Source: Patescibacteria group bacterium
GTDB lineage: Bacteria; Patescibacteriota; Microgenomatia; UBA8517
Direction of reading: 5' to 3'
Length of the DNA stretch: 64,000 nucleotides
Assembly: GCA_035291665.1 (NCBI GenBank)
Contig: DATDRP010000003.1
Location: forward strand, 212,549-276,548
The notes beneath the pieces were generated by a model, which made no database searches, was not told the DNA's origin, and saw nothing but the letters and a program-made list of their open reading frames with translations. The stretch's first letter is position 1. Each line of letters begins with the position of its first letter. Both the position numbers and the translations under genes were made by a program. Of this stretch, positions 2,961 through 62,600 are shown piece by piece.

Positions 2961-4526
2961 TTAATCTGCTTTGGGGAGCCGAACAATAAATACCGCACCT
3001 TTTGGTGTATTGTCAGTTACTGTAATACTTCCTCCATAGCGTTCAACGGTCATCCTTACAATGTACAAGCCCAACCCGGAATGGCCGGTTTCTCCATATT
3101 TGAATCCTTCGGTGAAGAGTTTGACTTTAACATCATCCGGAATCCCCTTACCTTCATCGGCAATTTTTATGTTCACAAACTTTCCCGAAACATTAACTTC
3201 AATATTGACCACATCTGATCCCGAATGCATCTGGACATTTCCGATAATGTTATCAAAAACAGAGGTTATAGCTTCGTCAGCGACAACAGACGCGGCACCG
3301 GTTGTTGTAATTTTCATTTTAGGATAATTCTCAATTACTGTTGATATTACCTTTGACACATCGACCGGTTTCAGTTCACCGCCCGCCAAAACACTATTCT
3401 CCAAATCTCTCATTTTTTTAATGAACTCCATTCCTCTTGCAACAGCAGATTGCGAATCGCCTATAAATGTCTCAACTTGTAATTTATCCTTCATATCCTG
3501 AAACATTTCCAAATTGCCCTGTATTATTGTCAGGTCATTGAGTAAATCATGTCTAAGAAGTTTATTCAGTACTTTTAAAGTTGACGTAAGTTCGCGAATT
3601 TTTATATCTCTTGCCTTCAGTTGACTTGCCATCTGGTTAAAACCTTTTGCCAACGTTCCCAATTCGTCATGATTCTCAACACTTACTTCATAATTGAAGT
3701 TGCCTGATGCTATCTCCCGGCTTCCTTTCTGAAGCTTCGTAATTGGTATGATTAAAAGTTTTTCAGCAACAAAATACCCTAACATAATTGCAAAAATCAT
3801 ACTGAGAATCAAAGATGTATAAGTAATCAATTCTACTTTCATTATTATTCCTGAGACATGTTGATGTTGATCCTCTGATGTCTGCGTATTAAATTCAACC
3901 ATCTGGGTTATTTTGCCTCCCATCTCAGTTTTTATATTTTTAATGGCGGATAGCACTTCATCAAGCTCTGCATGCTGCTCCTCGTGCGTTTCCCCTTGTT
4001 CATGCAAACGAAGTATGCTTTTCTTTAGCTGAAAAGCACGTTCAGACTTCGCTACAAGTTTGTCAAATAAAGCATCTACTTCAACCATCAATCTTGCATT
4101 TGCTTCATCAGACTTATGAATTTTGTAAATATTATTAAACCCGTGGAGTATCCATTCGCGGTAAATTATTCCACCGTCTAATCTTTTAAAATTCTCTGAA
4201 TCACTTCCTTCAATGACGGCTTGTGCAAACATCTCAAAATTAAGAACATTTTTATTAAAGTTGGCTTCTGAGTCGCGTATAATTTGAATGTCAGTGATAT
4301 CCTCTGCACGAAATGCAGCTGATAATTCTCCGGTGACTCCTTCCAAAGCAACCAAAACCTGCTGTGTTGCCAACGAGGTCGGCATTTGGTTTTCAATATG
4401 GTCTTCAAAATTCTTTGAAACGATCGACAGATTGTAAAGAAAGATAACTCCCAGAATAAGAAGAAAACCGACAAGTCCCAAAAATATGAGTGTTAGCTCA
4501 GTTTGAATTGAGCGAAGTTTTTTCAT
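2961..4526 (-). CDS. sensor histidine kinase (two TM, HAMP, HisKA, HATPase_c)
   Basis: N-terminal TM, periplasmic region, second TM. HAMP-like linker (LAKGFNQMASQL), H-box (LLRHDLLNDL), G-boxes (DEGKGIP, GLGLYIV). Confidence 0.8.
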   Translation of the reverse strand: MKKLRSIQTELTLIFLGLVGFLLILGVIFLYNLSIVSKNFEDHIENQMPTSLATQQVLVALEGVTGELSAAFRAEDITDIQIIRDSEANFNKNVLNFEMFAQAVIEGSDSENFKRLDGGIIYREWILHGFNNIYKIHKSDEANARLMVEVDALFDKLVAKSERAFQLKKSILRLHEQGETHEEQHAELDEVLSAIKNIKTEMGGKITQMVEFNTQTSEDQHQHVSGIIMKVELITYTSLILSMIFAIMLGYFVAEKLLIIPITKLQKGSREIASGNFNYEVSVENHDELGTLAKGFNQMASQLKARDIKIRELTSTLKVLNKLLRHDLLNDLTIIQGNLEMFQDMKDKLQVETFIGDSQSAVARGMEFIKKMRDLENSVLAGGELKPVDVSKVISTVIENYPKMKITTTGAASVVADEAITSVFDNIIGNVQMHSGSDVVNIEVNVSGKFVNIKIADEGKGIPDDVKVKLFTEGFKYGETGHSGLGLYIVRMTVERYGGSITVTDNTPKGAVFIVRLPKAD

Positions 4527-5173: not shown

Positions 5174-5220
5174 GGAGACTTCATATCCAGCTTAACGAAT
5201 TAATCCGACCAAAACAATAA

Positions 5221-5273
5221 CATCTTCCCCGCACCAAAGTGCGGGGTTTTCTCCCTAAGGAAGATGTTTTTTT
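5221..5273. terminator. nested hairpin with T-tract (also the minimal member of the hairpin-repeat family)
   Basis: catcttcc-CCCCGCAC-caaa-GTGCGGGG-ttttctccctaagg-aagatg followed by T7. Lies between two minus-strand genes. Confidence 0.4.
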
Positions 5274-5438
5274 GACTAAAGTCATAAGCTTTGCTTATTT
5301 GCCTCAATTCATCCCTGCAACAAATTGAAGGGTATTCTTGAGGTCGATTAATAAGATGTTCAAAAGTTCAAATAGCGAAATTTGATTGGATTCAATCACT
5401 TTCCCTAAATTTTTTTCAAGTTAATGTAAGAAGGCGGA

Positions 5439-6534: not shown

Positions 6535-6565
6535 GCGCCGTATTATATTATATATAAAGTGTTAT

Positions 6566-6678
6566 GACATCCTCCCCCGAGTCTGACTCGGGGGTTTCCC
6601 TAAGGAGGGGGACATATCTGAGTTCAATTCATCTACGTTCATGTAAACTTAACGTAGTTTTCTTGAAATCTGTTATAA
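6566..6678. repeat. structured intergenic repeat element (hairpin-repeat family, full-length copy)
   Basis: Perfect palindrome CCCCCGAGTC-T-GACTCGGGGG at 6574-6594. Outer pairing catcctcc...ggaggggga. Second hairpin ctacgtt...aacgtag. Conserved tail ttcttgaaatctgttataa. Related copies at 11443-11492, 33060-33265, 42173-42290 and 5221-5266. Confidence 0.7.
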
Positions 6679-6689
6679 TTTTGCCAAAC

Positions 6690-6989
6690 ATGCAAGAGCA
6701 AAAGATAATTGGATTAGACAATTCAGTTCTCGAAGAAATTATTAGGGGCGGAGGCGGATTTGCACGGCAAGCATTAGAAGAACTTTCGGGAAGGGCAATG
6801 GGTGGAAACCCCGATGCACGAAGCCTAGTTATGAAAATAGACAACGAAGTAAGTTCAGGTCATTTAACATTACCGACCGAAGAGGTAAAACCTGAAAACA
6901 ATACTATAAGTTTGAAAGATCGACTCAAAAGTGCATTTAACCGGCAGGGTAAATTACAGCATTTTCTACCTCCAGATAGAGATCCCTGA
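6690..6989 (+). CDS. hypothetical protein
   Basis: ORF trimmed to the internal ATG at 6690, because the upstream part of the track ORF is the repeat element. Confidence 0.35.
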   Translation: MQEQKIIGLDNSVLEEIIRGGGGFARQALEELSGRAMGGNPDARSLVMKIDNEVSSGHLTLPTEEVKPENNTISLKDRLKSAFNRQGKLQHFLPPDRDP

Positions 6990-11346: not shown

Positions 11347-11508
11347 TTGTATAGTGTATCAAATTTTTGGATACATTTAGTGCCAATAGGTTATAACACT
11401 GAGCTTATCGAAGTGCTCCCCCTGGTTGGCGTATTTAAGAATGACATCCTCCCCCGAGTCTGACTCGGTGGTATTCTTGAAATCTGTTATAAATGATAAA
11501 CTGAATCC

Positions 11509-11784
11509 ATGACAATACTGGCAGGCTTGGCGGCAATAACGGGTGTTTTTTTGGGTTTGGGTAGTCTTCCTCAAGCAGTTAAAATATTCCGAACAAAAAG
11601 TGCTGTAGATATTGCTCCTTTATCATATGTCATCATGGTGCTTGGGTCATTCATTTGGATTCTCTATGGATTGGAATTAAAAAGTCTACCAATCATGATC
11701 CCTAATATATTGGGCGTAATTCTTGGAACAATAATATTAATGGGTTGGTTCCTCTACGGAAAGCTACGCAAAAAAACACCTTGA
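11509..11784 (+). CDS. SemiSWEET / PQ-loop family transporter
   Basis: 91 aa, three TM helices, PQ motif (SLPQAVKIFRTKS). Confidence 0.65.
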   Translation: MTILAGLAAITGVFLGLGSLPQAVKIFRTKSAVDIAPLSYVIMVLGSFIWILYGLELKSLPIMIPNILGVILGTIILMGWFLYGKLRKKTP

Positions 11785-14870: not shown

Positions 14871-14911
14871 AATATTTTAACATCGAACTTGGTCAGATTA
14901 AGATAATTCAG

Positions 14912-15063
14912 CTCCTCCGGTAGGATTCCCTTCGATTACACTCAGGGTAAACTTCTCATCCTACCGAACGCTTCTACTCGCCATGCTTGCACTGAGTGAA
15001 GCGTAGTGAGCCGAAGGGCTCCCCCGGTAAGTCTACTTTTGATTACAAAAGATCTTGGCCGGT
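14912..15063. repeat. degenerate tRNA-Asn 3'-end-like direct repeats (two adjacent copies) with shared flank GCTTGCACTGAG...GCCGAAG
   Basis: ctcctccggtaggattcccttcga (14912-) and gctcccccggtaagtctacttttgattacaaaagatcttggccggt (15018-15063) resemble the genuine tRNA-Asn 3' end ctcctcggctaggatttgaacc at 18859. Confidence 0.6.
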
Positions 15064-15209
15064 TTCGCAAATTAAACTTCGTTAAATTTGCTCCCGCTAA
15101 TAAATACATTCAGGACACTTGACTATTCACAATTCCAAGACTACAAACCTCGATTTCTTCAGTCCTATCTATAATAACTTAATAAATACTAATTAGGTTA
15201 TTCAAACAG

Positions 15210-15650: not shown

Positions 15651-15980
15651 ATGATATTAAGACGGCAAATGAGGATTACACAGGATAAATATGACACGCT
15701 ACTAGATAAATATAAGAAAATTAAGGCAGATTTGTTGGTACAAATGGAACAACACAGCAGTGCTGACAAAAACTACTTTGTTAAGGCCAGTAAGTTATTG
15801 GAATTGGCTCGTAAAGCATACGAATTATTTGAAAAAGTGGATGCTTACCAAAAAAGAGAGCTTCTGTTTTACTTATTTCAGAACTCTCAAATGGACGGGG
15901 AAAAGCTCGTTCCTAGCCTCAAAATGCAATTTGATGTCATACTAGAAGCCAATAAAACAAAAGATTGGCTCCCCCGGTAG
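15651..15980 (+). CDS. hypothetical protein
   Basis: 109-aa ORF, helical and charged. No family. Confidence 0.3.
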   Translation: MILRRQMRITQDKYDTLLDKYKKIKADLLVQMEQHSSADKNYFVKASKLLELARKAYELFEKVDAYQKRELLFYLFQNSQMDGEKLVPSLKMQFDVILEANKTKDWLPR

Positions 15981-16013
15981 GTCTACTTTTGATTACAAAA
16001 GATCTTGGCCGGT
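15968..16013. repeat. 46-bp repeat copy (gctcccccggtaggtctacttttgattacaaaagatcttggccggt)
   Basis: Near-identical to 15018-15063 and 18353-18398. Contains perfect hairpin CTTTTG-atta-CAAAAG. Confidence 0.7.
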
Positions 16014-16595
16014 GGAATTTATTTCCTTTTGCCTGCCTTGAGCTTGTTTACACTGAGTTTACCGAATTGCCGAAGAGCTCTCTTATTGGGAGGAATTTAG
16101 AACTATAGCACTTCATATTTAGTTATAGATTTGAGTAAGTTTTGTACATCCACACGAGAATTATCACATTCAAGATTAATATAGCGGAATTAAATATTAG
16201 TATTACTTTGGGGGAAAACTTGGATTTTATTACAAGATAGGAATAACCGGAATAAGTTAGCAAATGAAATAAGATATTGGAAATAGTTCCCCAAGAATTA
16301 ATACTATATTCAAGTTCTCCCGATAAACAGATATTAAATGGAAAGGGAACAAATAAGTCATATTTTGGAGCACACATACAGCTTACGCACATAAAACGAA
16401 CTTCAAAAAATGAACTTATTAAGCTAAAAACTGTATAAACAACAATCTCCATTACTAGAGGTATAAAAAGAATACGTATTTGTAAGGGTGAAAGCTTCGT
16501 AATTATTTTCAATAATTCAGTATTTATTATCAGGTCAGAGAAGTCAATAAAATGGTCCAAGTTGAAATTCGCTTATTGGGAAGAATTTAGAATAT

Positions 16596-18352: not shown

Positions 18353-18468
18353 GCTCCCCCGGTAAGTCTACTTTTGATTACAAAAGATCTTGGCCGGTGT
18401 CGCAAATTTCTCTGCGATAAATTTACTCCCCCGGTAGGATTCCCTTCAGCTTCGTTCAGGGTAAACTC
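18353..18468. repeat. 46-bp repeat copy plus second tRNA-Asn-3'-end-like copy
   Basis: gctcccccggtaagtctacttttgattacaaaagatcttggccggt (18353-18398), then ctcccccggtaggattcccttcagc (18426-). Confidence 0.65.
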
Positions 18469-33059: not shown

Positions 33060-33265
33060 TTAAAAGAATTGATCCCCGGAGTCAGATTTGGGGATTTTCT
33101 TGAACATTGATGTGAAACCTCCCCGCCCTCTCGCTATCACTTTCAGGCGGGGTATCCTTTCGGATCCGTCTAAACGAGGTTACATTCTTAATTCAATTCA
33201 TCCCCATCCTTCGGCAATTGCCTTCAGATGGGGTATTCTTGAAATACGTATAAAATAATACGGAC
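33060..33265. repeat. diverged double copy of the hairpin-repeat family
   Basis: Shares ttcttgaa, ttcaattcatcc and catcc...gggg modules. Variable hairpins ccccgccctctcgctatcactttcaggcgggg and catccccatccttcggcaattgccttcagatgggg. Confidence 0.55.
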
Positions 33266-33266
33266 C

Positions 33267-34409
33267 ATGGAAAAACTGTCTAATTTATTCAAAAACAGAA
33301 TTGTATTAATTTTGTTCCTTTTCGTTATCAGCAGGACCTTGCTGACTATATTCGGTGTCGATTCACGAAATTTACCGCAATTTAAGAGTAATCCTTGGTA
33401 CGAATGGAAAAATTCTGATATCCCAGCGCTTGACATATGGAGCGTTTGGGATAGCTCTTGGTATCTGGATATTGCAAGAAACGGCTATAGCCCGGAACCT
33501 AAAACTGACATCCCTAAGTCTTGCTGCGGTCAGGCAAATTACGCATTCTATCCGCTTTATCCGTACAGCATAAGATTCTTGGCAATATTATTTAAGAATC
33601 ATTACCTTATCGGTTTGGCGGTTTCAAACATTTGTCTTTTAATTGCCTCATACTTTCTCCACAAGCTGGTATCAAAGCAATATAGCCGGGGGGTTGCCGA
33701 TGGGACATTAATATTTTTATATCTTTTTCCCACTGCTTTTGTGTTTTCCGGATTTTTTTCAGAATCAATGTTTTTGATGCTATTGATTCTTAGTTTTTAC
33801 TTTGCTGATAAGAACAAGTGGTTCCTGTCGGGGTTCTTTGGATTTTTGATGTCTTTAACCAGGTCGATCGGAGTTTTTGTCTCGATAGCTCTTTTGTGGG
33901 AATATCTCCGGCAAAGAGGATTTAATTATAAAAAATTGGATAAAAACTTCTTCTCATTCTTATTTTATCCCTTGGGTCCGATATTAATGATGTTTATTAT
34001 GTACCGTTTAACCGGCGATTTCCTGGCACACATCCACCTGGAACATTCTTCATGGGGAGTAAATTTTACCAATCCCTTTCAAACACTTTTTTCCACTTTA
34101 TTTATGAAAACCAACATCAGCATTATAAGCCTTTACACTTTTTGGCTGTTTGTGCTTTTGGCATTTAACTTGAAGGCTATAAAATTCAGTTATTTTATCC
34201 TAAGCATGATACTTCTGACTGCTCCACTTACAATCGGAGATGTCGGTATGGTCAGCATGCTTCGCTATTCGATTGTCGTCTTTCCCATCCCGTTGATTTT
34301 GGCATTGAAAATAAAATCAAATCTAATAACAGCCGCTCTGGTACTCATTTTGGCAATACTTCAATTAACTTTTATGGGTTTCTGGAGTAATGGCTTATTT
34401 ATAATCTGA
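33267..34409 (+). CDS. GT-C-type polytopic membrane protein
   Basis: About 10 TM helices. No soluble domain. Confidence 0.45.
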   Translation: MEKLSNLFKNRIVLILFLFVISRTLLTIFGVDSRNLPQFKSNPWYEWKNSDIPALDIWSVWDSSWYLDIARNGYSPEPKTDIPKSCCGQANYAFYPLYPYSIRFLAILFKNHYLIGLAVSNICLLIASYFLHKLVSKQYSRGVADGTLIFLYLFPTAFVFSGFFSESMFLMLLILSFYFADKNKWFLSGFFGFLMSLTRSIGVFVSIALLWEYLRQRGFNYKKLDKNFFSFLFYPLGPILMMFIMYRLTGDFLAHIHLEHSSWGVNFTNPFQTLFSTLFMKTNISIISLYTFWLFVLLAFNLKAIKFSYFILSMILLTAPLTIGDVGMVSMLRYSIVVFPIPLILALKIKSNLITAALVLILAILQLTFMGFWSNGLFII

Positions 34410-35580: not shown

Positions 35581-36660
35581 TTACTCTAAATAGTCCTGAA
35601 GTTTCTTTCTTCTACTGGGGTGTTTAAGTTTACGAAGAGCTTTGGCCTCGATCTGACGTATTCGTTCACGCGTTACTCCGAATACTTTACCCACTTCTTC
35701 GAGTGTCATCGATTTCGTCCCTTCAAGTCCAAAGCGTAATCTCAAGACTTTCGCCTCTCTGTCGGAGAGGGTTTTCAAAACTTCTTCAAGATGGTCCTTC
35801 AAAAGCTGTTTTGAAGCTGCGTCGACCGGCGATAGCTGACTTTCATCGGGTATGAAGTCACCCAAAAAGCTTTCCTTGTCTTCCCCAACAGGTGCTTCCA
35901 GAGATGTTACTTCCTGGGCTATCTTAAAAATCTCACGTACGCGATCCGGTTCCAACTCGACTTCTTCAGCTATCTCTTCAGCCGTCGGTTCACGGCCTAA
36001 CTCTTGCATCAAACGCCTTGATGTCCGATATAATTTGTTAATCGTTTCAACCATGTGTACCGGTATACGGATCGTTCTCGCCTGATCTGCAATCGCTCTG
36101 GTTATTGCCTGGCGGATCCACCAAGTGGCATAGGTTGAAAACTTGAAGCCCTTTCTCCAATCATATTTCTCAACTGCTCTTATGAGCCCCTGATTTCCCT
36201 CCTGAATAAGATCCAGTAGCGATAAACCCCGACCGATGTATTTTTTTGCAATTGAAACAACCAGCCGGAGATTCGACTCGGTCAATTTATCTTTTGCAAA
36301 CTTATCTCCTTTTTCAAACTTTTTTGCCAGCTCAATCTCGTCTTCAGCTGTCAAAAGATTCACTTTCCCAATTTCCCGGAGATATTGCCTGACGGGGTCG
36401 GTTGATTCAGCTCCACCAAGCTTTGTAAGGATTTCTATTTCGCGTTCAAGTTTCTCTTTTGCTTTTTCTTCACTTTCATCCTCTTCGGCCTCGACCGACT
36501 CAAAAACATCAACCCCTTCTGAGATTAATCTGTCATATAAATCGTCAAGTTCGGAAATGCGATCTTCCGCATCGTTGAAGACATCCAAAATCTCATCCTG
36601 GGTAAGAAATCCCTGCTCGCGGGCGTGTTTAATAAGACTTGTTACTTCATTTCTCAGCAT
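35581..36660 (-). CDS. rpoD: RNA polymerase sigma factor RpoD (sigma-70, short form)
   Basis: Region 2 [18 protein letters not shown]. RpoD box. Region 4 HTH. Acidic N-terminus. Confidence 0.9.
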
Positions 36661-40497: not shown

Positions 40498-42039
40498 ATG
40501 TCTCAGAGTAAAAAATCTTATTTTCTGCAAATTCTTGCCGTTGCGGCAATATCGCTTTTTGTGGTTCTCCCTACTCTTATCGGGGTATTTCACAAAATCC
40601 CAGGGAAAACTTTTACCGGCAACACGTTCTATTTTGACCCTTGGGATGTGAATGTTTATGTATCCGCCGTCAACTACTCGCAAAAATTCGGGTTTGACTT
40701 TGAAAATATGTACACCACAGAAAATTTTCCGAACAGAGTAAATTTATATCCTTTATATAGCCTGACCGGAACGCTTTTCAAAAATATAAATCCATTTCTG
40801 GTGTATTACCTACTGATTATTTCCGCAATTTATGTTTTCGTTCTTGTTGTAGGTAAAACCATAAAATTTGTAATTCCTGTTCCTTTAAATAGATTTTATT
40901 TTATTATTTTACTGTCCTTGTCGGGTGGTTTTGGATGGCTATTGTTTGGCAATATTCCGTCGGCGGACATCACCACAACGCCTTTTACTTTTCTAAACAT
41001 GCTTCAAAGGCCGCATGCAACCGCCGCAATATCTTTCTATATCGCCTCTTTGATAAGCTTCTATCGGTTTTCCCAAACCAAGGCAAAGAAATATTTAACT
41101 TTATCGATCATATCTCTTTTTGTATTTGCAATATTTTATCCATATCTTTTGTTAAGCTTTTACGCAACGATTTTTATATACAGTTTGTTTTTATATCATA
41201 CGGAAAAAAACACTCTCGGAATAAAAACCGTTTTGAAAATTTTCTTCTTAACGCTTATTCCTGCCGCTATCTACTCTTTATATATTCTGAAAGGATCTCA
41301 ATTTAAAGGAGTTCTGAGTCCTAACCTGCCAACACCGCAGATTCTATATATTTTCCTCGGCCATGGTGTTTTTTTAACGGGATTAATATACCAGATCTTC
41401 AACAAAAAAAGGTCAAATCTTTCAACTTTTCTTATCATCTGGTATCTTTCGGGGATACTTCTTTCTTATGCGCCAATCTCCTTCTCGAGATATTATTTGA
41501 GTTCGCTTTTTTTCCCTATAACTCTATTACTATACATTTCCAAAAAAGATTTATTAAAGATGATCAAAAGTATCCATCTTCGAACAACGTTGGTTGTTAT
41601 ATTTATATTTTTCGGGACGCTCACCAGTTGGGTAATTCTTTTCGTCAGAATCCTGGCTGTATCGATGTCCAGCAGATGGGCTTACCTTGATGAGTCTTAT
41701 TTTGATATTTTCAAATTTCTCAATAGAAATTCCCCGTCAGGATCCGGAGTAATGGTTACCTACCCTATATCAAACTTTATTCCGGTCTACACCTACAATA
41801 AAGTCTATCTCGGACACGGTGCGCAAACTTTTAACGCAGTTGAGAAAGATGCGTTGCAGAAAAGATTTTACGATCTGACCATTTCAGAAGATGGGTTAAA
41901 TTCAATTATAAAAAGCAATGTTCGTTACGCAGTTGTTGAAAACAATTCGGTTGATATGTATCTGAACCTTAATTCCCAAACAACAAAAATCGGAAGTGTG
42001 TATCAAAGCGGGAACTATACTTTATTGGAATTCAGATAA
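40498..42039 (+). CDS. GT-C-type polytopic membrane protein (DUF2079-like)
   Basis: More than 10 TM helices plus a C-terminal soluble domain. Confidence 0.45.
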   Translation: MSQSKKSYFLQILAVAAISLFVVLPTLIGVFHKIPGKTFTGNTFYFDPWDVNVYVSAVNYSQKFGFDFENMYTTENFPNRVNLYPLYSLTGTLFKNINPFLVYYLLIISAIYVFVLVVGKTIKFVIPVPLNRFYFIILLSLSGGFGWLLFGNIPSADITTTPFTFLNMLQRPHATAAISFYIASLISFYRFSQTKAKKYLTLSIISLFVFAIFYPYLLLSFYATIFIYSLFLYHTEKNTLGIKTVLKIFFLTLIPAAIYSLYILKGSQFKGVLSPNLPTPQILYIFLGHGVFLTGLIYQIFNKKRSNLSTFLIIWYLSGILLSYAPISFSRYYLSSLFFPITLLLYISKKDLLKMIKSIHLRTTLVVIFIFFGTLTSWVILFVRILAVSMSSRWAYLDESYFDIFKFLNRNSPSGSGVMVTYPISNFIPVYTYNKVYLGHGAQTFNAVEKDALQKRFYDLTISEDGLNSIIKSNVRYAVVENNSVDMYLNLNSQTTKIGSVYQSGNYTLLEFR

Positions 42040-42040
42040 A

Positions 42041-42115
42041 ATGCGCAATCGAAAACCCTACCTCAACGCGAGTGCAACGAGCGGAGCGTCAAACGCACCA
42101 ACCGAGTTTGACTAT
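42041..42115. repeat. 75-bp direct repeat, copy 1 (copy 2 at 43026-43100)
   Basis: atgcgcaatcgaaaaccctacctcaacgcgagtgcaacgagcggagcgtcaaacgcaccaaccgagtttgact vs atgcgtaatcgaaaaacctgcctcaacgcgagtgcaacgaccagagcgtcaaacgcaccagccgagtttgactcgg. Confidence 0.8.
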
Positions 42116-42172
42116 ATAGTGTTTAGTTGAATTTATTGAAACTTATTATTAAACAATTTACTATTCTAATGG

Positions 42173-42290
42173 CATCCTCCCCCGAGTCAAACTCGGGGGT
42201 TTCCTCAAGAGGAGGATGACATATCAGAGTTCAATTCACCCTCAGATTGAAAGTCCGGGGTTCTCTTGAACGCTGTTATAGAATTTACTA
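42173..42290. repeat. hairpin-repeat family, full-length copy
   Basis: catcctcc-CCCCGAGTC-aaa-CTCGGGGG-tttcctcaagaggaggatg, acatatcagagttcaattca, hairpin ccctcagattgaaagtccgggg, ttctcttgaacgctgttata. Confidence 0.7.
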
Positions 42291-42905: not shown

Positions 42906-42981
42906 GACTTCGAAGACTAAGGATTCTCAAGTTTTAGTATTCTAATCAAAGCAGCCTGCCGTCCCGTAGCATTGGCGTAGG

Positions 42982-43004
42982 GCGGTGAGGGAGGGATTCG
43001 AACG
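42982..43004 (-). other. partial duplicate of tRNA-Ser(GGA) 3' end (att-like)
   Basis: ggcggtgagggagggattcgaac is identical to the 3' end of the tRNA at 43102-43125. Confidence 0.7.
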
Positions 43005-43025
43005 CACAATTTGCAACACCTTACA

Positions 43026-43100
43026 ATGCGTAATCGAAAAACCTGCCTCAACGCGAGTGCAACGACCAGAGCGTCAAACGCACCAGCCGAGTTTGACTCG
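43026..43100. repeat. 75-bp direct repeat, copy 2
   Basis: See copy 1. Abuts the tRNA-Ser 3' end. Confidence 0.8.
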
Positions 43101-43101
43101 G

Positions 43102-43188
43102 CGGTGAGGGAGGGATTCGAACCCTCGATGGCGTTGCCGCCATACACGCTTTCCAAGCGAGCCGATTAAACCGCTCTCGCACCTCACC
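43102..43188 (-). tRNA. tRNA-Ser (anticodon GGA), class II with long variable arm
   Basis: Reverse complement: acceptor ggtgagg/cctcacc, anticodon loop uuGGAaa, variable stem atggcg-gcaa-cgccat, T arm gaggg-ttcgaat-ccctc. 87 nt. Confidence 0.7.
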
Positions 43189-46180: not shown

Positions 46181-46204
46181 AAGGCGAATCTTCTCACCTC
46201 CGCC
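46181..46204 (+). repeat. degenerate copy of tRNA-Ser(CGA) 3' end, distal
   Basis: aaggcgaatcttctcacctccgcc, followed by the GACTCAGACTCGG palindrome-like motif. Confidence 0.65.
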
Positions 46205-46254
46205 GACTCAGACTCGGCTGGGACATTTGAAGTTTTTGTTCAGAGTGGCACAAT

Positions 46255-47576: not shown

Positions 47577-47974
47577 GGGGACGACCGGTTTCGACGGGAA
47601 AGCACCTTAAAAAACTGCAAGCCGAGTTTAATTCACACTCGCTAATAATGGATTAACAAATAAACGCTGATAACGAAAGTTACAGTCCAGAAGCAATAGC
47701 TTCAACTTTGCTCGGTACTAACCAAGCCAATTGGGCATTTGCTTAAACACTGGTGTCGTTTGAAAGGTTCTCAATCGTTTCAAAACGGCATAAACCTATT
47801 GAGATAAGCCAACAGCCGTTGACTGCAAGCTGTAGGTCGAAAAATATTCAGTCTTACTTGAAAGAAGGTCGTTAGTAATCTAACTTTCAAGAAAATATAA
47901 AAATACTAACTAAGCTTGTAAGAAAAGTTTTTTATTTACTTTTTCGGACGAGGGTTCGATTCCCTCCGTCTCCA
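47577..47974 (+). ncRNA. ssrA: tmRNA (ssrA)
   Basis: 5' GGGGACGACCGGTTTCGACGGG. 3' GGACGAGGGTTCGATTCCCTCCGTCTCCA paired with the 5' end. Internal tag ORF ...ANWAFA-stop. Confidence 0.9.
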
Positions 47975-47983
47975 CATATAAAA

Positions 47984-48012: not shown

Positions 48013-48128
48013 TGCTGAAAACCAAAGGAGGGATGAGAATTTATTCGCTCACTAGATTTGCGGCTTTGAAATCTTTAGATGAAAAATAAAGCAAACCTAG
48101 TGATATGAAATTTGTCTGAATTTCATAT

Positions 48129-48146
48129 TCCCTCCGTCTCCACCAA
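48129..48146 (+). repeat. duplicate of tmRNA 3' end (ttccctccgtctccacca)
   Basis: 18-nt identity with 47960-47976. This copy carries a full CCA. Confidence 0.7.
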
Positions 48147-48239
48147 GTCGAACTTGGTTTCGCCGAGTCAAAGCGAAAGCAAGGTTGACGCAGGTAGTCG
48201 AGTTTGACTCGACACCTTCTTTTTGTATATATTTTGTTC

Positions 48240-48524
48240 ATGAACAAAACGTCAGACGTTTTGTTAAAATTCTACGTTTATACACTTCTCTCACTAAAGG
48301 ATAAAAAATTTTATACTGGTTACACTACCGACTTGAAAATTCGGCTTACTCAACATTCAAAAGGTTTGGTCAAGTCCACAAAGTTAAGAAGGCCTTTCAA
48401 ACTAATTCATTACGAATATTTTATAAACGAGGAAGATGCAATGTCCCGAGAGCGCTTTCTAAAAAGTGGTTTTGGAAGAAAACAATTAAAAAACGCATTA
48501 AAGAGAACTTTGAGAAATATTTAA
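48240..48524 (+). CDS. GIY-YIG nuclease family protein (UPF0213-like)
   Basis: FYVYTLLSLKDKKFYTGYTTDLKIRLTQH matches the GIY-YIG motif. Start taken at the internal Met. Confidence 0.65.
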   Translation: MNKTSDVLLKFYVYTLLSLKDKKFYTGYTTDLKIRLTQHSKGLVKSTKLRRPFKLIHYEYFINEEDAMSRERFLKSGFGRKQLKNALKRTLRNI

Positions 48525-51664: not shown

Positions 51665-53458
51665 TTACAGTTTCTCTAAATTATAAAGCGAGCTTTTTAA
51701 CCCGACATAACCGGGCGCCCGAAGATTGAAAGCTTTTTTAAATTCATCTCCGGGAATATTAATGCTTCCTTTGTTTGTCGAAAATATTACAGTTTGAGTT
51801 GATCCTGAATTGGAATAAACAACACTTATAGATGAAGCACTAGTAAATCCGCCGATCCCGGCAAGATCACTCAAGGAGTAGGGATTACCACCCCAGCAGC
51901 TGGTATCAACCGGACTTATCCTTGAAACATCTCCCCCGCCTTTATTTAAGACACTCCAGGCGTTTATTATGTCTGCAGTTTGTTCACTCGTCAGCCACGG
52001 GTTTACCTTACCGCAAGTCGCGCCTGAACGGGATTTGTACCAGCCTTTGTAAAACCAAGGGGATCCGGAAATTTTTTCATAGGCTGAATTTGGCCAATTA
52101 CCGTCTTTGGCATCTTTTATCCCTGTCCATCCCCATTGGGATATGGTAAATCCTCCCGCAGTAGATGCGTAATAAGTCTTTGCCGGAGTTCCCCCGACAG
52201 TCAAAACCCAACCTCGGGTATCGCGTACTGCCTGTGCCCATTTACCCGATTTTAGCTGTGGCTTATACACCTGACAGCTTTCGGTTGTACAAATACTTCC
52301 GGCTCCGTTATTGGTGTACGAAAGTGCGTAAGTCCTGGCGGCAACCGCCTGCGCTTTGAGAGCTTCGTACCCGCCATTATCCCCCCACTTTTCGGGGACC
52401 TCATAAATTCCAAGGAGGTAATTTTCCTCAAAAGAAACCCTTCCGATGCCGGTCACTCCGATGGTTGCCGGAACGGGATAATTTTTATTAAGTGTTGCAC
52501 CCTGAAAATAATCCGATAAAATTTGTTCTGCCGATTGACCTGATTTTGATCTTCCGTACGCGCCGTATTGGCTCATGCCTGTTCTATGGGGCGCACCAAA
52601 TGAAAACGCAGCAAACGCCGGGCGGTATCCGGGGTCGCAAAAATTTGCAGAGCCGGGCGGACCGGAACAGGGTTCAAGCGTTTCAGGAGTATCTCCGACC
52701 GAGGTTTGGAAGCCTCCCTCCTTTTGGGCAATCAGGGCTTGCTGTTTGGAAGACAGAGTAGCCAAATAGCTTTCTGTTTTTTCAACCTCCACTGATAGGA
52801 ATGCTGCTCTTTCTGAAACGTTTTTCTTAACAGATGCAAGCAATGTCTGGTTTTTTTCCAGACTTTCCTTATCGCTTTTCAGTTTTACCAGATCTGCCGC
52901 ATATTTCTCCATCGTTTTTATGTCCTCACCCGTTGCTTTTTTACGAAGATTAATTTCTCTGAAGGCGTTGCTGGCATTGGCGGCAGTAATAAAAGCCTGA
53001 AATTCATCGTAAAAGCGGATAAAAATATAGTGATTTTTTGTTTTTTCTTCGAATATTCTTTGCGCGTACGCAAGATCGCCTTCCCGCTCTTTAATGTTTT
53101 GTTCTGTAACTTTCAACTGCGCTGAAAGAGCTGCAATCTTTTTTTCTAAAGAAGATATCTGGATTCTTAAATCAGCCAACTCTTGTTTGTTATATTCGTG
53201 GGCGGGTTTAAGAGCGTCGATCTCTTTCTGAAGTTTGTCCAAACAAAAATCAATATCACCTATACTTGGAGCATCGCAGTTCGGTTCGGCAGTCACATAC
53301 CGAAGCTTTGCTCCCAGAAGGAAAAAGGGGGAGATAATAATTAAGAAGGTTACCAGCAAAAATAATTTACTCCCAAGTGGAGGTTGGGGCTTTCCGGAAA
53401 TCATAGTAAAATAATATTTATCCATGAAATACTTCATTAAAATTATATCAGGAGTCAT
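51665..53458 (-). CDS. SpoIID/LytB-domain protein with N-terminal signal anchor and coiled coil
   Basis: GMSQYGAYG motif plus Trp/Gly-rich C-terminal half. The start may be the internal Met near 53404, as it overlaps the divergent gene. Confidence 0.55.
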   Translation of the reverse strand: MTPDIILMKYFMDKYYFTMISGKPQPPLGSKLFLLVTFLIIISPFFLLGAKLRYVTAEPNCDAPSIGDIDFCLDKLQKEIDALKPAHEYNKQELADLRIQISSLEKKIAALSAQLKVTEQNIKEREGDLAYAQRIFEEKTKNHYIFIRFYDEFQAFITAANASNAFREINLRKKATGEDIKTMEKYAADLVKLKSDKESLEKNQTLLASVKKNVSERAAFLSVEVEKTESYLATLSSKQQALIAQKEGGFQTSVGDTPETLEPCSGPPGSANFCDPGYRPAFAAFSFGAPHRTGMSQYGAYGRSKSGQSAEQILSDYFQGATLNKNYPVPATIGVTGIGRVSFEENYLLGIYEVPEKWGDNGGYEALKAQAVAARTYALSYTNNGAGSICTTESCQVYKPQLKSGKWAQAVRDTRGWVLTVGGTPAKTYYASTAGGFTISQWGWTGIKDAKDGNWPNSAYEKISGSPWFYKGWYKSRSGATCGKVNPWLTSEQTADIINAWSVLNKGGGDVSRISPVDTSCWGGNPYSLSDLAGIGGFTSASSISVVYSNSGSTQTVIFSTNKGSINIPGDEFKKAFNLRAPGYVGLKSSLYNLEKL

Positions 53459-59528: not shown

Positions 59529-59613
59529 GGAAATTTGTCATGATGCCACTTTATCCCCCGAGTCTAACTCGATAGACACCTTGAACATATGATAAAATTT
59601 GTAAACAATACAT

Positions 59614-62600
59614 ATGACAAAAAAATTGTTCGCAATTGTCTTTTCATTCTTATTTTTAGCAAAGAGCTATTCAATAATTTCGGCGCAAACTCCAACAACT
59701 CTTGATTGTACAAACGGATTCCAAACGCTTTTCCCCGATCAAACAAGCGCAATAACCTACAAAGAAGTGACCCTCACTTCCCCCAGAAGAATGGTTGTCC
59801 ATATTGTCAAAGCCAACATCAATAGCGGGGATCTTGATTTTACAACAACGCCGCGAAAATATTTGGGATCAACTACTTCGACTTTTTTAACCGGCGTCGA
59901 CGCAGCGGTTGCCATAAACGGAAGCGGTTTTTTTGAGTCCGACCCGGAAGATCCGACCGGATTTAATTCATATCAGGGAGACCGATACTCATCCGATTCG
60001 GGATTGGGAATTTTGGGTTTTTTCATCTCCGAAGACAACGTTCCATCATTCACCTATTCAATCCCATCACCCTTGTGGGATGCATTAAGCGGCGTCAACC
60101 TTCTTGTGAGCAACAATAATATTTATGATCGATTAATAAGCTGCCCCCTTCAAAGCTGCACCCCTTCCGGCTGTGACACATCATACTGCACAGTTGCTCC
60201 CAGAACCGCACTTGGATTAAACGATGATAATATAATAATTATCGTCGTAGACGGCCGGTTGCCGGGTTACAGTGAAGGAGCAAGACTTGATGAGCTGGCG
60301 ACGATAATGCGAAGGTGTGAAGCGACAAATGCCGTAAACATGGATGGCGGAGGTTCTTCAACACTAGCCGCATCGGGCTTAAATTATACAGGTAATCAGA
60401 TTTTAAACCGCCCGAGCGACGGAACGGAAAGAACCGTTTCGAACCATTTCGGAATCTGTATTGGATCGTGTTCTGATATCAGCAGCAACCCGATTCTTAT
60501 ACTTCCTGAAGGGGAAGCCAGACCAAGATATCAGGCTGGTGCGGAGTATCCATTCCCATGTAACAGAAGCGCCCCTGATAATAGCATTCCTTTCTCCGAT
60601 GATGAATTTCATTCCTTAAGACCCTATCAGGCAAGTCCCTGCAATCCAAATAAGGAAGATCTTGCGCTTTTTTGCGGAAATGACTTGTTTGTCGGAGACA
60701 ATGTCACAATCATAAAAACCAATTATGAACCCCCCACTATTCCTGCTTACTCTGTAAACGGATCCCCCGCTTCACCCAATGTACCTTCCGATCCTTACAG
60801 CAATGCATGCTTTATCTGCGGAGATAGCGGCTATTGTCAAAGAACGCTGAATGTATATTGCGACAGCTCAGCCGATCAGTGCGACCCCAATATAACAAAC
60901 TCCTGCAGCCGGTGCATTAATAACGGCGACGGAACGGAAAGCTGCTCATTTGTTATTTCTTCATCAAAGCAAATAGCGGTGGATCTCTTTGGAGCGGAAC
61001 TGCCGATTATGGGTTACACCGAGCCCTCAGTGGGAAACACTAATGGACCGAAAGTGATAAACAGCCAAAACAAAACCGACGAAACCATGGATCACGCAAC
61101 AAAGATGAATGAATATGTCAGCTGGTACTTGAACGGTGTTATCGGAAGAGCCGAATATGATTTTCCCGACCCTACCCCCGACTGCGTCGGGGAATCATCA
61201 GACAAACCCGGCTGGTGTGAACCGTTGGTCCTCGGAAGTAATTACTGTATGACAAAAAGTTCAGTTCCTCTGGTTGGAGCAACCCCCAACTTCGATCATA
61301 TTGCCGATGGAAAGGATACCTGTTCTTCGGGAGAATATTGCTGCGTCAGCCAGTCAACTTCTGACAGTGGCAAAATTCCTGACCGGGAAATAACCAGTAA
61401 TTATTCCGGTCCGGTAAAAAAACTTCTTCCTTTTACTATCCAAAACATAGAAAGGATCGCTGAGATCAATGACGGTTTTGCTTCAAAAAATCTTGATACT
61501 CGTATCCGACATGATCAGTACGTAGGCTGCCACTTCGGTGGAATGTTTAATGTCAAAATTCCCTTTACAAGTACGTATGTTGATTTTTCGATTCTGGCAA
61601 TTCCAACACAATGTTACGGAGGCGGTTTTGTGGATTATATCAGAGACGAACTGCACCTGAGTGAATTCGCACCAAACAATCTTCCACCCGTTGAAGAAGA
61701 TTACCAGGGAAGGCCGTTTATTGAATTCCAAAAGGATTACAGGGAGTGGAAGGGCGACTGGTGTTATCCTTTGACGATCAATATTCCGATATTCGGTACT
61801 TTTCAATTCCTTTTGTGCTTTAACAATCCATTCAGTCCGGATATCTTTTCAAACCTTTTCAGCTTTACTCCGTTCACGTCAACCGAAGACCGACTGGGGG
61901 ATGTCAGGGTCAGGTCGGTTGGAATAGTTCCGATCGGATCCAACCTGCGGTTGATTTCCTACAGACTCAGGAACGTTAAAAATGCGGACCTCTTCTTTGC
62001 CCACATGGAAGAAGACACTCAGCTTTCTGCAAATCTTCAGGATACATTCATTTATAAAGACGCCGATCGCGATGATATCGGTTCGTCCTCATTTGTACCC
62101 TATGAACCATATTGCAGCTATCGCCGGGTCATTACTAATCCCGGAGACGATCTTTTTGCCGGAGAAATCTCAGCCGATGTTGACTATACGGTTGCTCTGA
62201 CCTGTCCCTTTTTTATCTGGGGAGATGGACAGAATGCTGATTACGGCAACCTTTGCCGGAACCTGAATAATGCGGAGTGTGTAAGAGCAATTCCCGCGGA
62301 TGCCACTTGGTGTGATGTAAGTTATGGGCAATTCGACTGCATCGGAGGACAAATTTGCGGTGTGAATTGCCAATCGGTGGTTGGAGTAGACGAATCAAAT
62401 TGCGAGTCCGCAGCAGCACTGGATTTTCCCAGTTTACCGTATGTTAATTCGGAGAACCCGGGTTGTGTACCGGAAAGCTTTGATGGTATATGCGAGGAGG
62501 TCAGCGATTATCCCAGTAGATCTCCTTATAGTATTCCCTACCCATACTGCAGAAGCGGATTTAAGTGTGTTTTCAATAAAAATACCTGTACGAGAAGCGA

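Follow-up and report, generated by a model that had tools for sequence, protein, structure and literature searches.

A dispersed two-palindrome repeat of Woesebacteria, probably mobile, with a conserved fold

Introduction

What keeps the hairpins of a bacterial repeat paired when their sequences differ from copy to copy? The question is raised by a 64,000-nucleotide stretch of DNA (here called the window), a chromosome segment of about 38% G+C from the Woesebacteria (Microgenomates/CPR). Among its genes are five for tRNAs and one for tmRNA, and the gene content is typical of the CPR (T4SS_pilin, DUF5657, and 23S_rRNA_IVP in the Pfam annotations). A preliminary description of this DNA had noted short conserved modules enclosing hairpins of unrelated sequence and had offered three candidates, namely a REP- or MITE-like element, a family of small RNAs, or protein-binding sites. 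The reading favored here, with moderate confidence, is that the repeat is a non-coding, probably mobile, MITE/REP-like element of Woesebacteria and other Microgenomates, with terminator-like hairpins and an outward-facing promoter. Literature searches turned up no account of a structured repeat dispersed through genomes of the CPR/Patescibacteria. This two-palindrome repeat of Microgenomates is best read as new.

The repeat family in the window

The dispersed family of two-hairpin repeats, each about 111 bases long, is real. The sequences noted in the preliminary description at 5221-5266, 6566-6678, 11443-11492, 33060-33265, and 42173-42290 are all present as described. A covariance model (R1), a step that it had proposed, was built from 16 copies and used to score the window and the loci of relatives; it finds the window copies all on the + strand. 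The members comprise two full copies, one split, one diverged, one internally deleted, and one decayed short form. The first full copy lies at 6564-6679 (+; 92.9 bits with R1; fold z-score -3.3), its first palindrome (P1) at 6564-6619 with an apical hairpin at 6574-6594 and its second (P2) at 6615-6676 with an apical hairpin at 6632-6658, both on the + strand. The other, at 42169-42282 (+; 102.1 bits), occupies a convergent intergenic space between a 513-aa gene (+) and a 204-aa gene (-). The two match at 86% over 66 nt (6568-6631 against 42173-42238, E about 5e-10).

Several members turned out to differ in extent or make-up from the first account. The copy given as 5221-5266 is real, but it has a second module at 5291-5354; it is a split copy spanning 5217-5354 (+; 38.1 bits for 5217-5288 and 30.9 bits for 5291-5354). 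Its P1 (5217-5266, +) has the base ATAACATCTTCC/GGAAGATGTT and the hairpin CCCCGCAC/GTGCGGGG, and after a spacer of about 25 nt comes its P2 (5291-5354, +), with the base CCTCAA/TTGAGG. This copy is antisense relative to both neighboring genes. The copy at 11443 is also a member, but an internal-deletion form (11441-11493, +), in which TATTCTTGAAATCTGTTATAAA is joined to the 5' strand of P1 and hairpin 1; a SWEET/PQ-loop gene (Pfam) lies 3' of it, with its ATG at 11509. Both of its parts are identical to the first full copy, 6564-6591 to 11441-11468 (28/28) and 6660-6678 to 11474-11492 (19/19).

The span 33060-33265 belongs to the family as well, but it is not a single copy. It begins with an older remnant of the 3' half of a P2 (33064-33116, +; a CCCC..GGGG hairpin plus ATTTTCTTGAACATTGATGT, aligned in repeat family D3) and continues with a diverged full copy at about 33112-33256 (+; 28.4 bits for 33152-33254). 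The latter has a P1-like part with an apical loop of 18 nt (33112-33186, +) and a P2 reading CAATTCA-CCCCATC..GATGGGG-TATTCTTGAAATACGTATAAAAT (33190-33256, +), and the ATG of a GT-C glycosyltransferase gene lies downstream at 33267. The diverged copy starts straight after the TGnTAT-like box of the remnant and is probably nested in it, at the same relative insertion position.

Of the small fragments reported earlier, the one at 59553 is a decayed short form (59545-59598, +) made up of CCCCCGAGTCTAACTCGATAG and CCTTGAACATATGATAAAAT, the latter a TGnTAAAAT box. It is aligned in family D3, falls under the R1 threshold, and lies 5' of a 1310-aa gene with its ATG at 59614. The remaining fragments, at 43089, 46203, and 48200, are not called by the model. 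Those at 43086-43102 (the palindrome GCCGAGTTTGACTCGGC, with no strand assigned, abutting the 3' end of a tRNA-Ser gene) and 48199-48215 have the palindrome core GAGTYNRACTC only, and 46203-46219 is a looser palindrome, GACTCAGACTC, outside that pattern. The core itself occurs six times in the window, against 0.12 expected.

A coding role for the element was considered and rejected. A frame that starts with the ATG at 6564 runs into the 99-aa gene in that copy alone, and a stop interrupts the same frame in the 11441 copy and in the consensus of the Woesebacteria genome GWA1_39_21.

Two separable palindromes

Alignment of copies from several genomes resolves the element, 110-116 nt long, into two adjacent imperfect palindromes. 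P1 runs ATGACATCCTCC - apical hairpin - G(G)TTTCC..AA - GGAGGATGACAT (in a shorter notation its end is GTTTCC..AAGGAGGATGACAT), and P2 runs ATATCAGAGTTCAA - TTCA - apical hairpin - TTTTC - TTGAACGCTGTTAT, followed by AA(A/T). In both, the basal stems are conserved in sequence, and the apical hairpins are variable but paired. The bases of P1 and P2 are unlike each other, their apical stems are unrelated within one copy, and the feet of the palindromes are ATGACAT (P1) and ATATCAG (P2). Stops in most frames, as read from the sequence, mark the element as non-coding.

The two palindromes can be separated. Besides the spacer in the 5217 copy, an insert of 30-50 nt lies between them at loci L112, L124, and L003:5098, and the copy at L046 is without the P1 apical hairpin. 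Other Microgenomates carry P2 alone, in the frame GAGTTCAATTCA-TCC...TTCTTGAA with a -10-like box 5-8 nt further on, and this arrangement is recurrent in several Microgenomates lineages. A crude scan for a hairpin followed by TTCTTGAA and a -10 box gave a count no better than shuffles.

T-runs follow the hairpins on the + strand only (TTTCC after the P1 hairpin and TTTTCTT after the P2 hairpin). At the level of sequence, the P1 and P2 hairpins have the GC-rich stem-loop and U-run of an intrinsic terminator, and a simple terminator scan flags hairpin 1 of the copies at 5227 and 11454. The hairpins would be expected to terminate transcription.

Selection on the fold

That selection acts on the secondary structure of the element is strongly supported, as the preliminary description had proposed from the hairpins of the window. 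In an alignment of 25 distinct copies from many metagenomes, the enclosed hairpins differ and yet remain compensated. Standard pairs fill 95.9% of the stem cells, compared to 38.5-49.3% in slid controls, the alignment having been fitted to the covariance model in a way that favors pairing. Double compensatory changes are present in 17 of the 33 pairs, and none of 500 shuffles reaches the observed covariation values on any measure. Apical stems have been replaced wholesale and are still paired, for example CCCCACCC/GGGTGGGG, CCACGGGC/GCCCGTGG, CTCCGGAC/GTCCGGAG, and TCTACGTT/AACGTAGT. The base of P1 covaries too (CATCCTCC/GGAGGATG, CATTCTCC/GGAGAATG, CGTCCTCC/GGAGGACG, and ACATCTTCC/GGAAGATGT). 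The base of P2 is invariant in the 25-copy set, partly owing to how the copies were collected, and is compensated in diverged copies (CCTCAA/TTGAGG at 5291-5354; GTTCAA/TTGAAC changed to GTTCGA/TCGAAA at L054). Folding points the same way: in the two full window copies, each strand gives a better fold than shuffled sequence does (z from -2.6 to -3.8), and the + strand of the split 5217 copy and of the diverged 33112 copy reaches -4.8 and -3.5.

Strong covariation is also what one would look for in multicopy genes for a small RNA of about 105 nt, acting in trans or as a protein scaffold, with P1 as a 5' stem-loop, ACAUAUCAGAG as a single-stranded stretch, and P2 as a rho-independent terminator. 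The architecture is sRNA-like, and the U-run on one strand is a hint of an RNA-level role. About half of the copies, moreover, lie 12-75 nt from the start of a divergent gene, where a bidirectional -10 box could drive them. The stems themselves speak differently, since their mismatches include 14 G-U and 15 A-C, so wobble pairs show no selection on one RNA strand; these equal counts fit a DNA-level or strand-neutral constraint and neither support nor exclude a role of the RNA. The supposedly single-stranded stretch is mostly paired with the 3' end (ATATCAG/CTGTTAT). No conserved promoter stands upstream at a fixed distance: the 5' flanks differ beyond T-W-A-T, and a reading of them by eye gives a plausible -10 box for only some half of the copies. 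Rfam 15 yields no match at the gathering score, the best at E up to 10 having 17 bits against a 75-bit threshold. Also, truncated, split, and in-ORF copies exist, and relatives have the orthologous site without the element. A small RNA is, on this evidence, very unlikely.

Distribution and gene context

A 20-mer from the repeat finds relatives only in Candidatus Woesebacteria assemblies and in one contig filed under another phylum, and the named proteins on further element loci belong to Woesebacteria or the Microgenomates group. GWA1_39_21 has at least seven copies, nearly identical even in their apical stems; from one genome to another, the hairpins differ, with compensation. When the window is compared with all fetched Woesebacteria loci, the element is the sole alignable DNA, save for matches of 53 and 450 nt outside the copies. 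This is what a repeat looks like when it multiplies within lineages and its master copy has to keep its fold. Viral contigs contain no copies: the P2 pattern has 12 chance matches there, all lacking the TCC-hairpin, and the P1/P2 junction has none.

Gene context was assigned for 37 copies with a simple ORF caller. Each of the four arrangements occurs (divergent, convergent, and co-directional in either sense), with some excess of copies antisense to their neighbors. The preliminary description had most copies immediately 5' of plus-strand gene starts. This holds for 6564, 11441, 33152, and 59553, but it fails for 5217 and 42169 and for most copies elsewhere. In the window, three copies and the decayed short form have a + strand ATG 10-16 nt beyond them; elsewhere, copies more commonly neighbor a divergent gene whose start lies 12-75 nt from the 5' end of the element. 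One copy (L054) makes up 37 in-frame codons of an ORF for a PMT_2 glycosyltransferase. The range of arrangements, this in-frame copy, and the existence of decayed, deleted, and nested copies make a context typical of a selfish repeat. Of the three candidates first offered, the REP/MITE-like element is favored by the near-identical copies in one genome, the compensated hairpins between genomes, the empty sites described below, and the occurrence in all contexts.

The third candidate, protein-binding sites, deserves a closer look here, since every window copy is on one strand and the locally C-rich strand holds 28 of the 37 copies. Such sites would be fixed in place, and a structure-specific DNA protein would bind or recombine them, as with attC or with origin and nick sites read as folded single strands. 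The resemblance to integron attC is clear in the conserved basal stems or outer boxes, the internal loop (TTCA/TTTTC) as an unpaired central spacer, the variable terminal stem that is kept paired, and the homogeneity within a genome. The consensus boxes differ, however, and GTTATAA and TTATAAC, compared by eye, do not fit the attC R''/R' boxes (RYYYAAC / GTTRRRY). No integrase is nearby in the Pfam annotations of the window, and the copies there are spaced 1-22 kb apart with tRNA, tmRNA, and housekeeping genes between, which is no cassette array. The strand bias is confounded with gene orientation: GC skew in the window follows the coding strand, which is G-rich, so a replication bias is inseparable from an antisense-to-genes bias in the figure of 28/37. 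Fixed sites of this kind are very unlikely.

Transposase, integrase, and HUH/Y1 genes are absent both from the window (Pfam) and from beside the copies in the fetched loci. A shared enzyme suggested by clustering of the flanking proteins was rejected, as the single cluster is mostly an artifact of translating the element. NUDIX and methyltransferase genes adjoin copies in the window and in L003; conservation of these neighbors by position was rejected as well, at 25-31% identity only.

Promoters of the host

An SD-like motif precedes only 3 of the 65 window ORFs. For 38 of the 65, a -10-like hexamer is present no more than 45 nt from the start, most commonly ending 4-8 nt before the ATG. From the scarcity of SD motifs and the closeness of these hexamers to the ATG, we infer that the majority of this genome's mRNAs are leaderless or close to it, which would place -10 boxes at the gene starts (4-10 nt before the ATG). 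TGnTAnAAT boxes stand 11-20 nt upstream of four window tRNA genes, and one canonical promoter, TTGAAA-16-TATAAT, was found in the window. A sigma-70 -35/-10 scan gave matches at no more than chance level; the RpoD gene of the window is at 35581-36660.

The 3' end of the element, together with the next bases, reads TGTTATAA(A/T), matching the extended -10 consensus of the host. At L016, 11 nt separate a tRNA-Arg gene from the end of the equivalent box 3' of a solo P2. The TTGAAC of the element was tried as a -35 and rejected, because a distance of 5-6 nt to the box is too close.

Empty sites and the rebuilt -10 box

The 6564 copy offers a direct comparison with relatives. A 187-aa protein encoded divergently from it has homologues at 50-64% identity. 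In L133/L134, L135, and L136, these adjoin orthologues of the 99-aa gene (51-54% and 39% identity); in L138, the neighbor is a 71-aa gene with a weak match to the 99-aa gene (41% over 29 aa); in L132, the small gene is apparently lost or degraded, and the promoter region is kept, with the box as TGTTATAAA. Five related genomes have the promoter region free of the element, and four keep the divergent small gene beside it. The R1 model finds no matches at these loci.

The empty sites leave 37-53 nt between the two start codons and read CAT..ATTATA..TGYTATAAT-N9-10-ATG, with an intact box 9-10 nt before the ATG. The individual sequences are CATgcgcgtattatattaaaagTGTTATAATtcggcaaatATG (L135), ..aaaaaaTGTTATAATtcgccaaatATG (L134), ..aaataTGCTATAATctcgcaaaatATG (L136), ..aaaggTGCTATAATactcaaaatATG (L138), and ..aaaagTGTTATAAAtcaccaaat (L132). 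The filled site of the window reads ..AAAGTGTTAT[GACATCC..ATCTGTTAT]AATTTTGCCAAACATG around the box and, in a longer view, ..taaagTGTTAT[GACATCC...GAAATCTGTTAT]AATtttgccaaacATG. The extra 111 nt in the window are exactly the element, inside the extended -10 box, and can be placed at 6566-6676 or, equally, at 6560-6670. At the 3' junction, TGTTAT from the element and AAT from the flank recreate the TGYTATAAT box; this rebuilt extended box, TGTTATAAT, lies at 6671-6679 (+), and the ATG of the gene is at 6690. In the protein identity matrix, the window is not nested among the empty-site genomes, so a single gain in the window lineage would be simpler than repeated precise losses, judged from one empty-site comparison and with precise loss between the TGTTAT repeats possible in principle. 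A second comparison, through a 380-aa gene, was dropped, its only matches being GT-C paralogues at 44% or less.

The same junction is seen in other copies. Among 24 copies, the 5' flank has T in 15/24, W in 22/24, A in 23/24, and T in 24/24 at positions -4 to -1, and the 3' flank has A in 23/24, A in 23/24, and W in 20/24 at +1 to +3; further out, the flanks are unrelated. Joined, the ends give TWAT^AAW, a -10-like word. The final tetranucleotide of the 5' flank is TAAT in nine of these copies, TTAT in seven, AAAT in four, CAAT in two, and another word in two. The full TGTTAT is present at the 5' junction in at least three copies (6564, L003a/L020, and L072:2966). The near-invariant AT and AA could belong to the element and not to the target.

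Terminal inverted repeats with target-site duplications, which the preliminary description had named as the sign of plain MITE decay, are not what the ends reveal. Long terminal inverted repeats are absent, the ends pairing ATGACA/TGTTAT at 5/6 only, and the direct repeats at the ends of 25 copies include no duplication of fixed length, with most copies sharing AT only. The suggestive cases among these 25, of 11 nt at L061 and 9 nt at 42169, follow no rule. For the 6 nt repeated at the 6564 site (TGTTAT), either a duplication or microhomology may be the source.

A model of insertion

As a MITE/REP-like element, the repeat would land in A/T-rich, -10-like sequence, with a 5' flank ending ...T-W-A-T and a 3' flank beginning A-A-W.... 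Its own 3' end, TTGAAC-NC-TGTTAT, would then join the flanking AAW to form TGTTATAAW, the extended -10 consensus of the host, and its two GC-rich hairpins on the top strand, each followed by a T-run, would be terminator-like. Since the -10 boxes of the mostly leaderless genes lie 4-10 nt before the ATG, a copy in such a box would leave the downstream gene a working-type box, with the hairpins between the box and the upstream DNA. The rebuilt box probably fires. Copies were presumably moved in trans, by an enzyme reading folded and probably single-stranded DNA. The bias toward gene starts in the window would then follow from insertion into the -10 boxes of a largely leaderless genome and not from a role in leader RNA.

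One could consider instead that the host itself selects the repeat as an intergenic cassette of terminator and promoter, kept because intergenic space is tiny and spread or homogenized by recombination or gene conversion. The GC-rich hairpins followed by TTTCC and TTTTCTT on one strand only, the terminator-like hairpin 1 of the 5227 and 11454 copies, and a 3' end equal to the organism's own -10 consensus all suit this idea. So do the copies that abut gene starts (three in the window, the decayed short form, L007a, and L074) or, at L016, a tRNA gene, and the solo P2 with its downstream -10-like box that recurs across several Microgenomates lineages. However, in about two thirds of the copies, the upstream gene is on the opposite strand, which leaves no transcript to terminate, and several copies point at a convergent gene from its 3' side, where a promoter would give antisense RNA only. 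The same gene pair runs without the element in five relatives, and one copy is inside an ORF. Nor is the hairpin a general terminator of this genome: perfect GC-rich hairpins with a stem of at least 7 bp number nine in the 64 kb, six of the nine are the repeat family or its GAGTC palindrome, and such hairpins are otherwise nearly absent from the intergenic regions of the window. A host-selected cassette is therefore unlikely, though it retains some plausibility.

A more novel reading is decidedly doubtful. In it, P1 and P2 would be the ends of an undescribed Microgenomates transposition system that reads folded single-stranded DNA, targets -10 boxes, inserts between TAT and AAT, and restores the box with its own end. 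It is at the -10 box that RNA polymerase melts the promoter into single strands. If this reading were true, the element would be a parasite that homes on promoters, suited to a genome both leaderless and ultra-compact, and its enzyme would be a new target-specific DNA inserter.

Comparison with known repeats

Correia elements carry 26-bp terminal inverted repeats and a TA duplication. These elements of Neisseria (CREE/NEMIS) are about 100-150 nt long, non-coding, dispersed, and often just 5' of genes; their ends and the target form sigma-70 -10 boxes able to drive neighbors, and their transcripts fold into long hairpins (PMC10969869). The repeat described here is like them in size, dispersal, position upstream of genes, and the -10 box formed by end and target. 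It is unlike them in having no long terminal inverted repeat or consistent target-site duplication, in its two different palindromes with compensated apical stems, and in its CPR lineage.

The REP/REPIN sequences (with RAYT, an IS200/IS605-like Y1 enzyme) and PATEs are likewise extragenic imperfect palindromes, homogeneous within a genome and different between genomes, in which hairpin structure counts for more than sequence, with no target-site duplication, no classical terminal inverted repeat, and a possible strand bias. As in PATEs, the element has subterminal hairpins at both ends and neither long terminal inverted repeats nor a consistent duplication. REPs begin with a conserved 5' GTAG-type tetranucleotide and accompany a RAYT gene that they flank, and in IS608-type elements the left and right hairpins are alike. 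An IS200/IS605 derivative would insert 3' of one fixed tetra- or pentanucleotide, and one TnpA would bind both of its hairpins. The feet of the present element are not GTAG-like, and Y1_Tnp is absent among the annotated window genes; the bases of P1 and P2 differ, and the target motif is a loose T-W-A-T and not one fixed word. As for MITEs, which are under about 500 bp, the element is small, non-coding, and multicopy (at least five copies in 64 kb) and has empty sites, but inverted repeats spanning its ends are lacking, those present being internal to P1 and to P2. It would work like a Correia element or a REP. Taken strictly, it does not qualify as a classical MITE, REP/RAYT, an IS200/IS605 derivative, or attC.

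SPRITE is terminator-like, and Rickettsia palindromic elements (RPE) are able to sit in frame inside genes. Both, as well as BOX and RUP, are known repeat families, SPRITE, BOX, and RUP being those of Streptococcus pneumoniae (PMC10969869). The element resembles all of these as a small modular repeat, its in-frame copy at L054 being RPE-like, but it has no sequence relation to them and differs in rebuilding a promoter box and in the design of two adjacent palindromes with conserved bases and variable tips. In a TIGR array, edge and loop repeats of 8-12 nt alternate in tandem, with spacers of 9 nt, and a Tas gene with a Nop domain lies alongside (PMC12045711). This identity was rejected, as the copies are dispersed single units and the Pfam annotations of the window include no Nop-domain family.

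Implications

The element is a clean, testable case of a structured dispersed repeat in the CPR/Patescibacteria. Its strong covariation most likely reflects propagation at the DNA level and not a functional RNA, which calls for caution in the discovery of RNA motifs from metagenomes. Where genes are leaderless, an inserted element could do no harm if it restores the -10 box that it disrupts, and this bears on the reuse and movement of promoters between genes. The conserved bases of P1 and P2 offer a handle for fishing out the protein that recognizes them. On the practical side, the repeat could be used as a marker for strain tracking and may break assemblies in Woesebacteria bins. The window's genome itself is detected in Rifle groundwater metagenomes.

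Gene starts and hairpin cores

The arrangement of gene starts in the window suggests that mRNAs of this Woesebacteria lineage are predominantly leaderless. Shine-Dalgarno motifs precede only 3 of the 65 open reading frames (ORFs) in the window, and the genome is nearly without them, while −10-like hexamers, frequently TGn-extended, most commonly end 4–8 nt 5′ of the ATG of these ORFs. At window positions 53370–53412, a CCCAA..TTGGG hairpin is followed by CTTTCCGGAAATCATAGTAAAAT, with an ATG 10 nt beyond. This arrangement resembles the 3′ half of the solo P2 units (the second palindrome of the P1-P2 element without the first) found in other Microgenomates (TTCTTGAAATCATAGTAAAAT).

The palindrome GAGTC-N-GACTC, which comprises two GANTC sites, is a recurring hairpin core in the window (6579, 11456, 42184, 43089, 48200, and 59560). 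It also arises independently in the apical hairpin of either P1 or P2 in copies from other lineages (loci L095 and L121). Such recurrence may mean that something favors this particular stem, for example its use as a methylation or restriction site.

Palindromic units inside genes

In three Woesebacteria genomes (L017, positions 3930–4040; L022; and L119), a solo P2 lies 18–25 nt inside the same gene, whose product begins MSNIFYDHL. The first codons of this gene are duplicated on either side of the unit, and the duplication leaves a 19-codon upstream ORF that keeps the original ribosome-binding context. At L054 (9872–9981), a full P1-P2 copy supplies 37 in-frame codons, which run antisense to the top strand of the element; the copy's host is a 492-aa stop-to-stop reading frame for a PMT_2-type membrane glycosyltransferase. 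This copy recalls the Rickettsia palindromic elements.

Neighboring RNA genes and other repeats

The full P1-P2 copy at 42169 lies, together with a 204-aa gene, in a 985-bp piece flanked by a 77-nt direct repeat whose units share 91% identity (42037–42113 and 43022–43098) and by a tRNA-Ser 3′ fragment present in duplicate (42981–43010 and 43100–43129). The bracketed piece looks like a scar of integration or duplication at tRNA-Ser. At the tmRNA gene (ssrA), the final 16 nt (TTCCCTCCGTCTCCAC; 47960–47976) are repeated 168 nt further downstream (48128–48143), and this repeat is followed by a GAGTTTGACTC hairpin and then by a 94-aa GIY-YIG gene (48240–48524). The region downstream of ssrA is likely the remnant of an element integrated there.

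A second repeat family (GCTCCCCCGGTAAGTCTACTTTTGATTACAAAAGATCTTGGCCGGT...), unrelated to the P1-P2 element, has intergenic copies near tRNA-Asn (14902–15095, 15968–16045, and 18353–18467) that are 71–91% identical. The Woesebacteria genome GWA1_39_21 contains two more kinds of repeat, one a hairpin (CTACCACGGACTAAAGTCCGTGGTTTCAGCAGATGAATTCAATAA) and the other an AT-rich palindrome (ATTATTTTACAAAAATAAT), which frequently adjoin the P1-P2 element (L003, 5880–5990 and 3866–3910; L004, 7340–7440). The intergenic DNA of this genome is a mosaic of hairpin modules.

A typical P1-P2 copy also occurs on a 106-kb contig (CAYYLO010000001.1) filed under an uncultured Gammaproteobacteria metagenome-assembled genome; the contig was probably mis-binned or the bin mislabelled.
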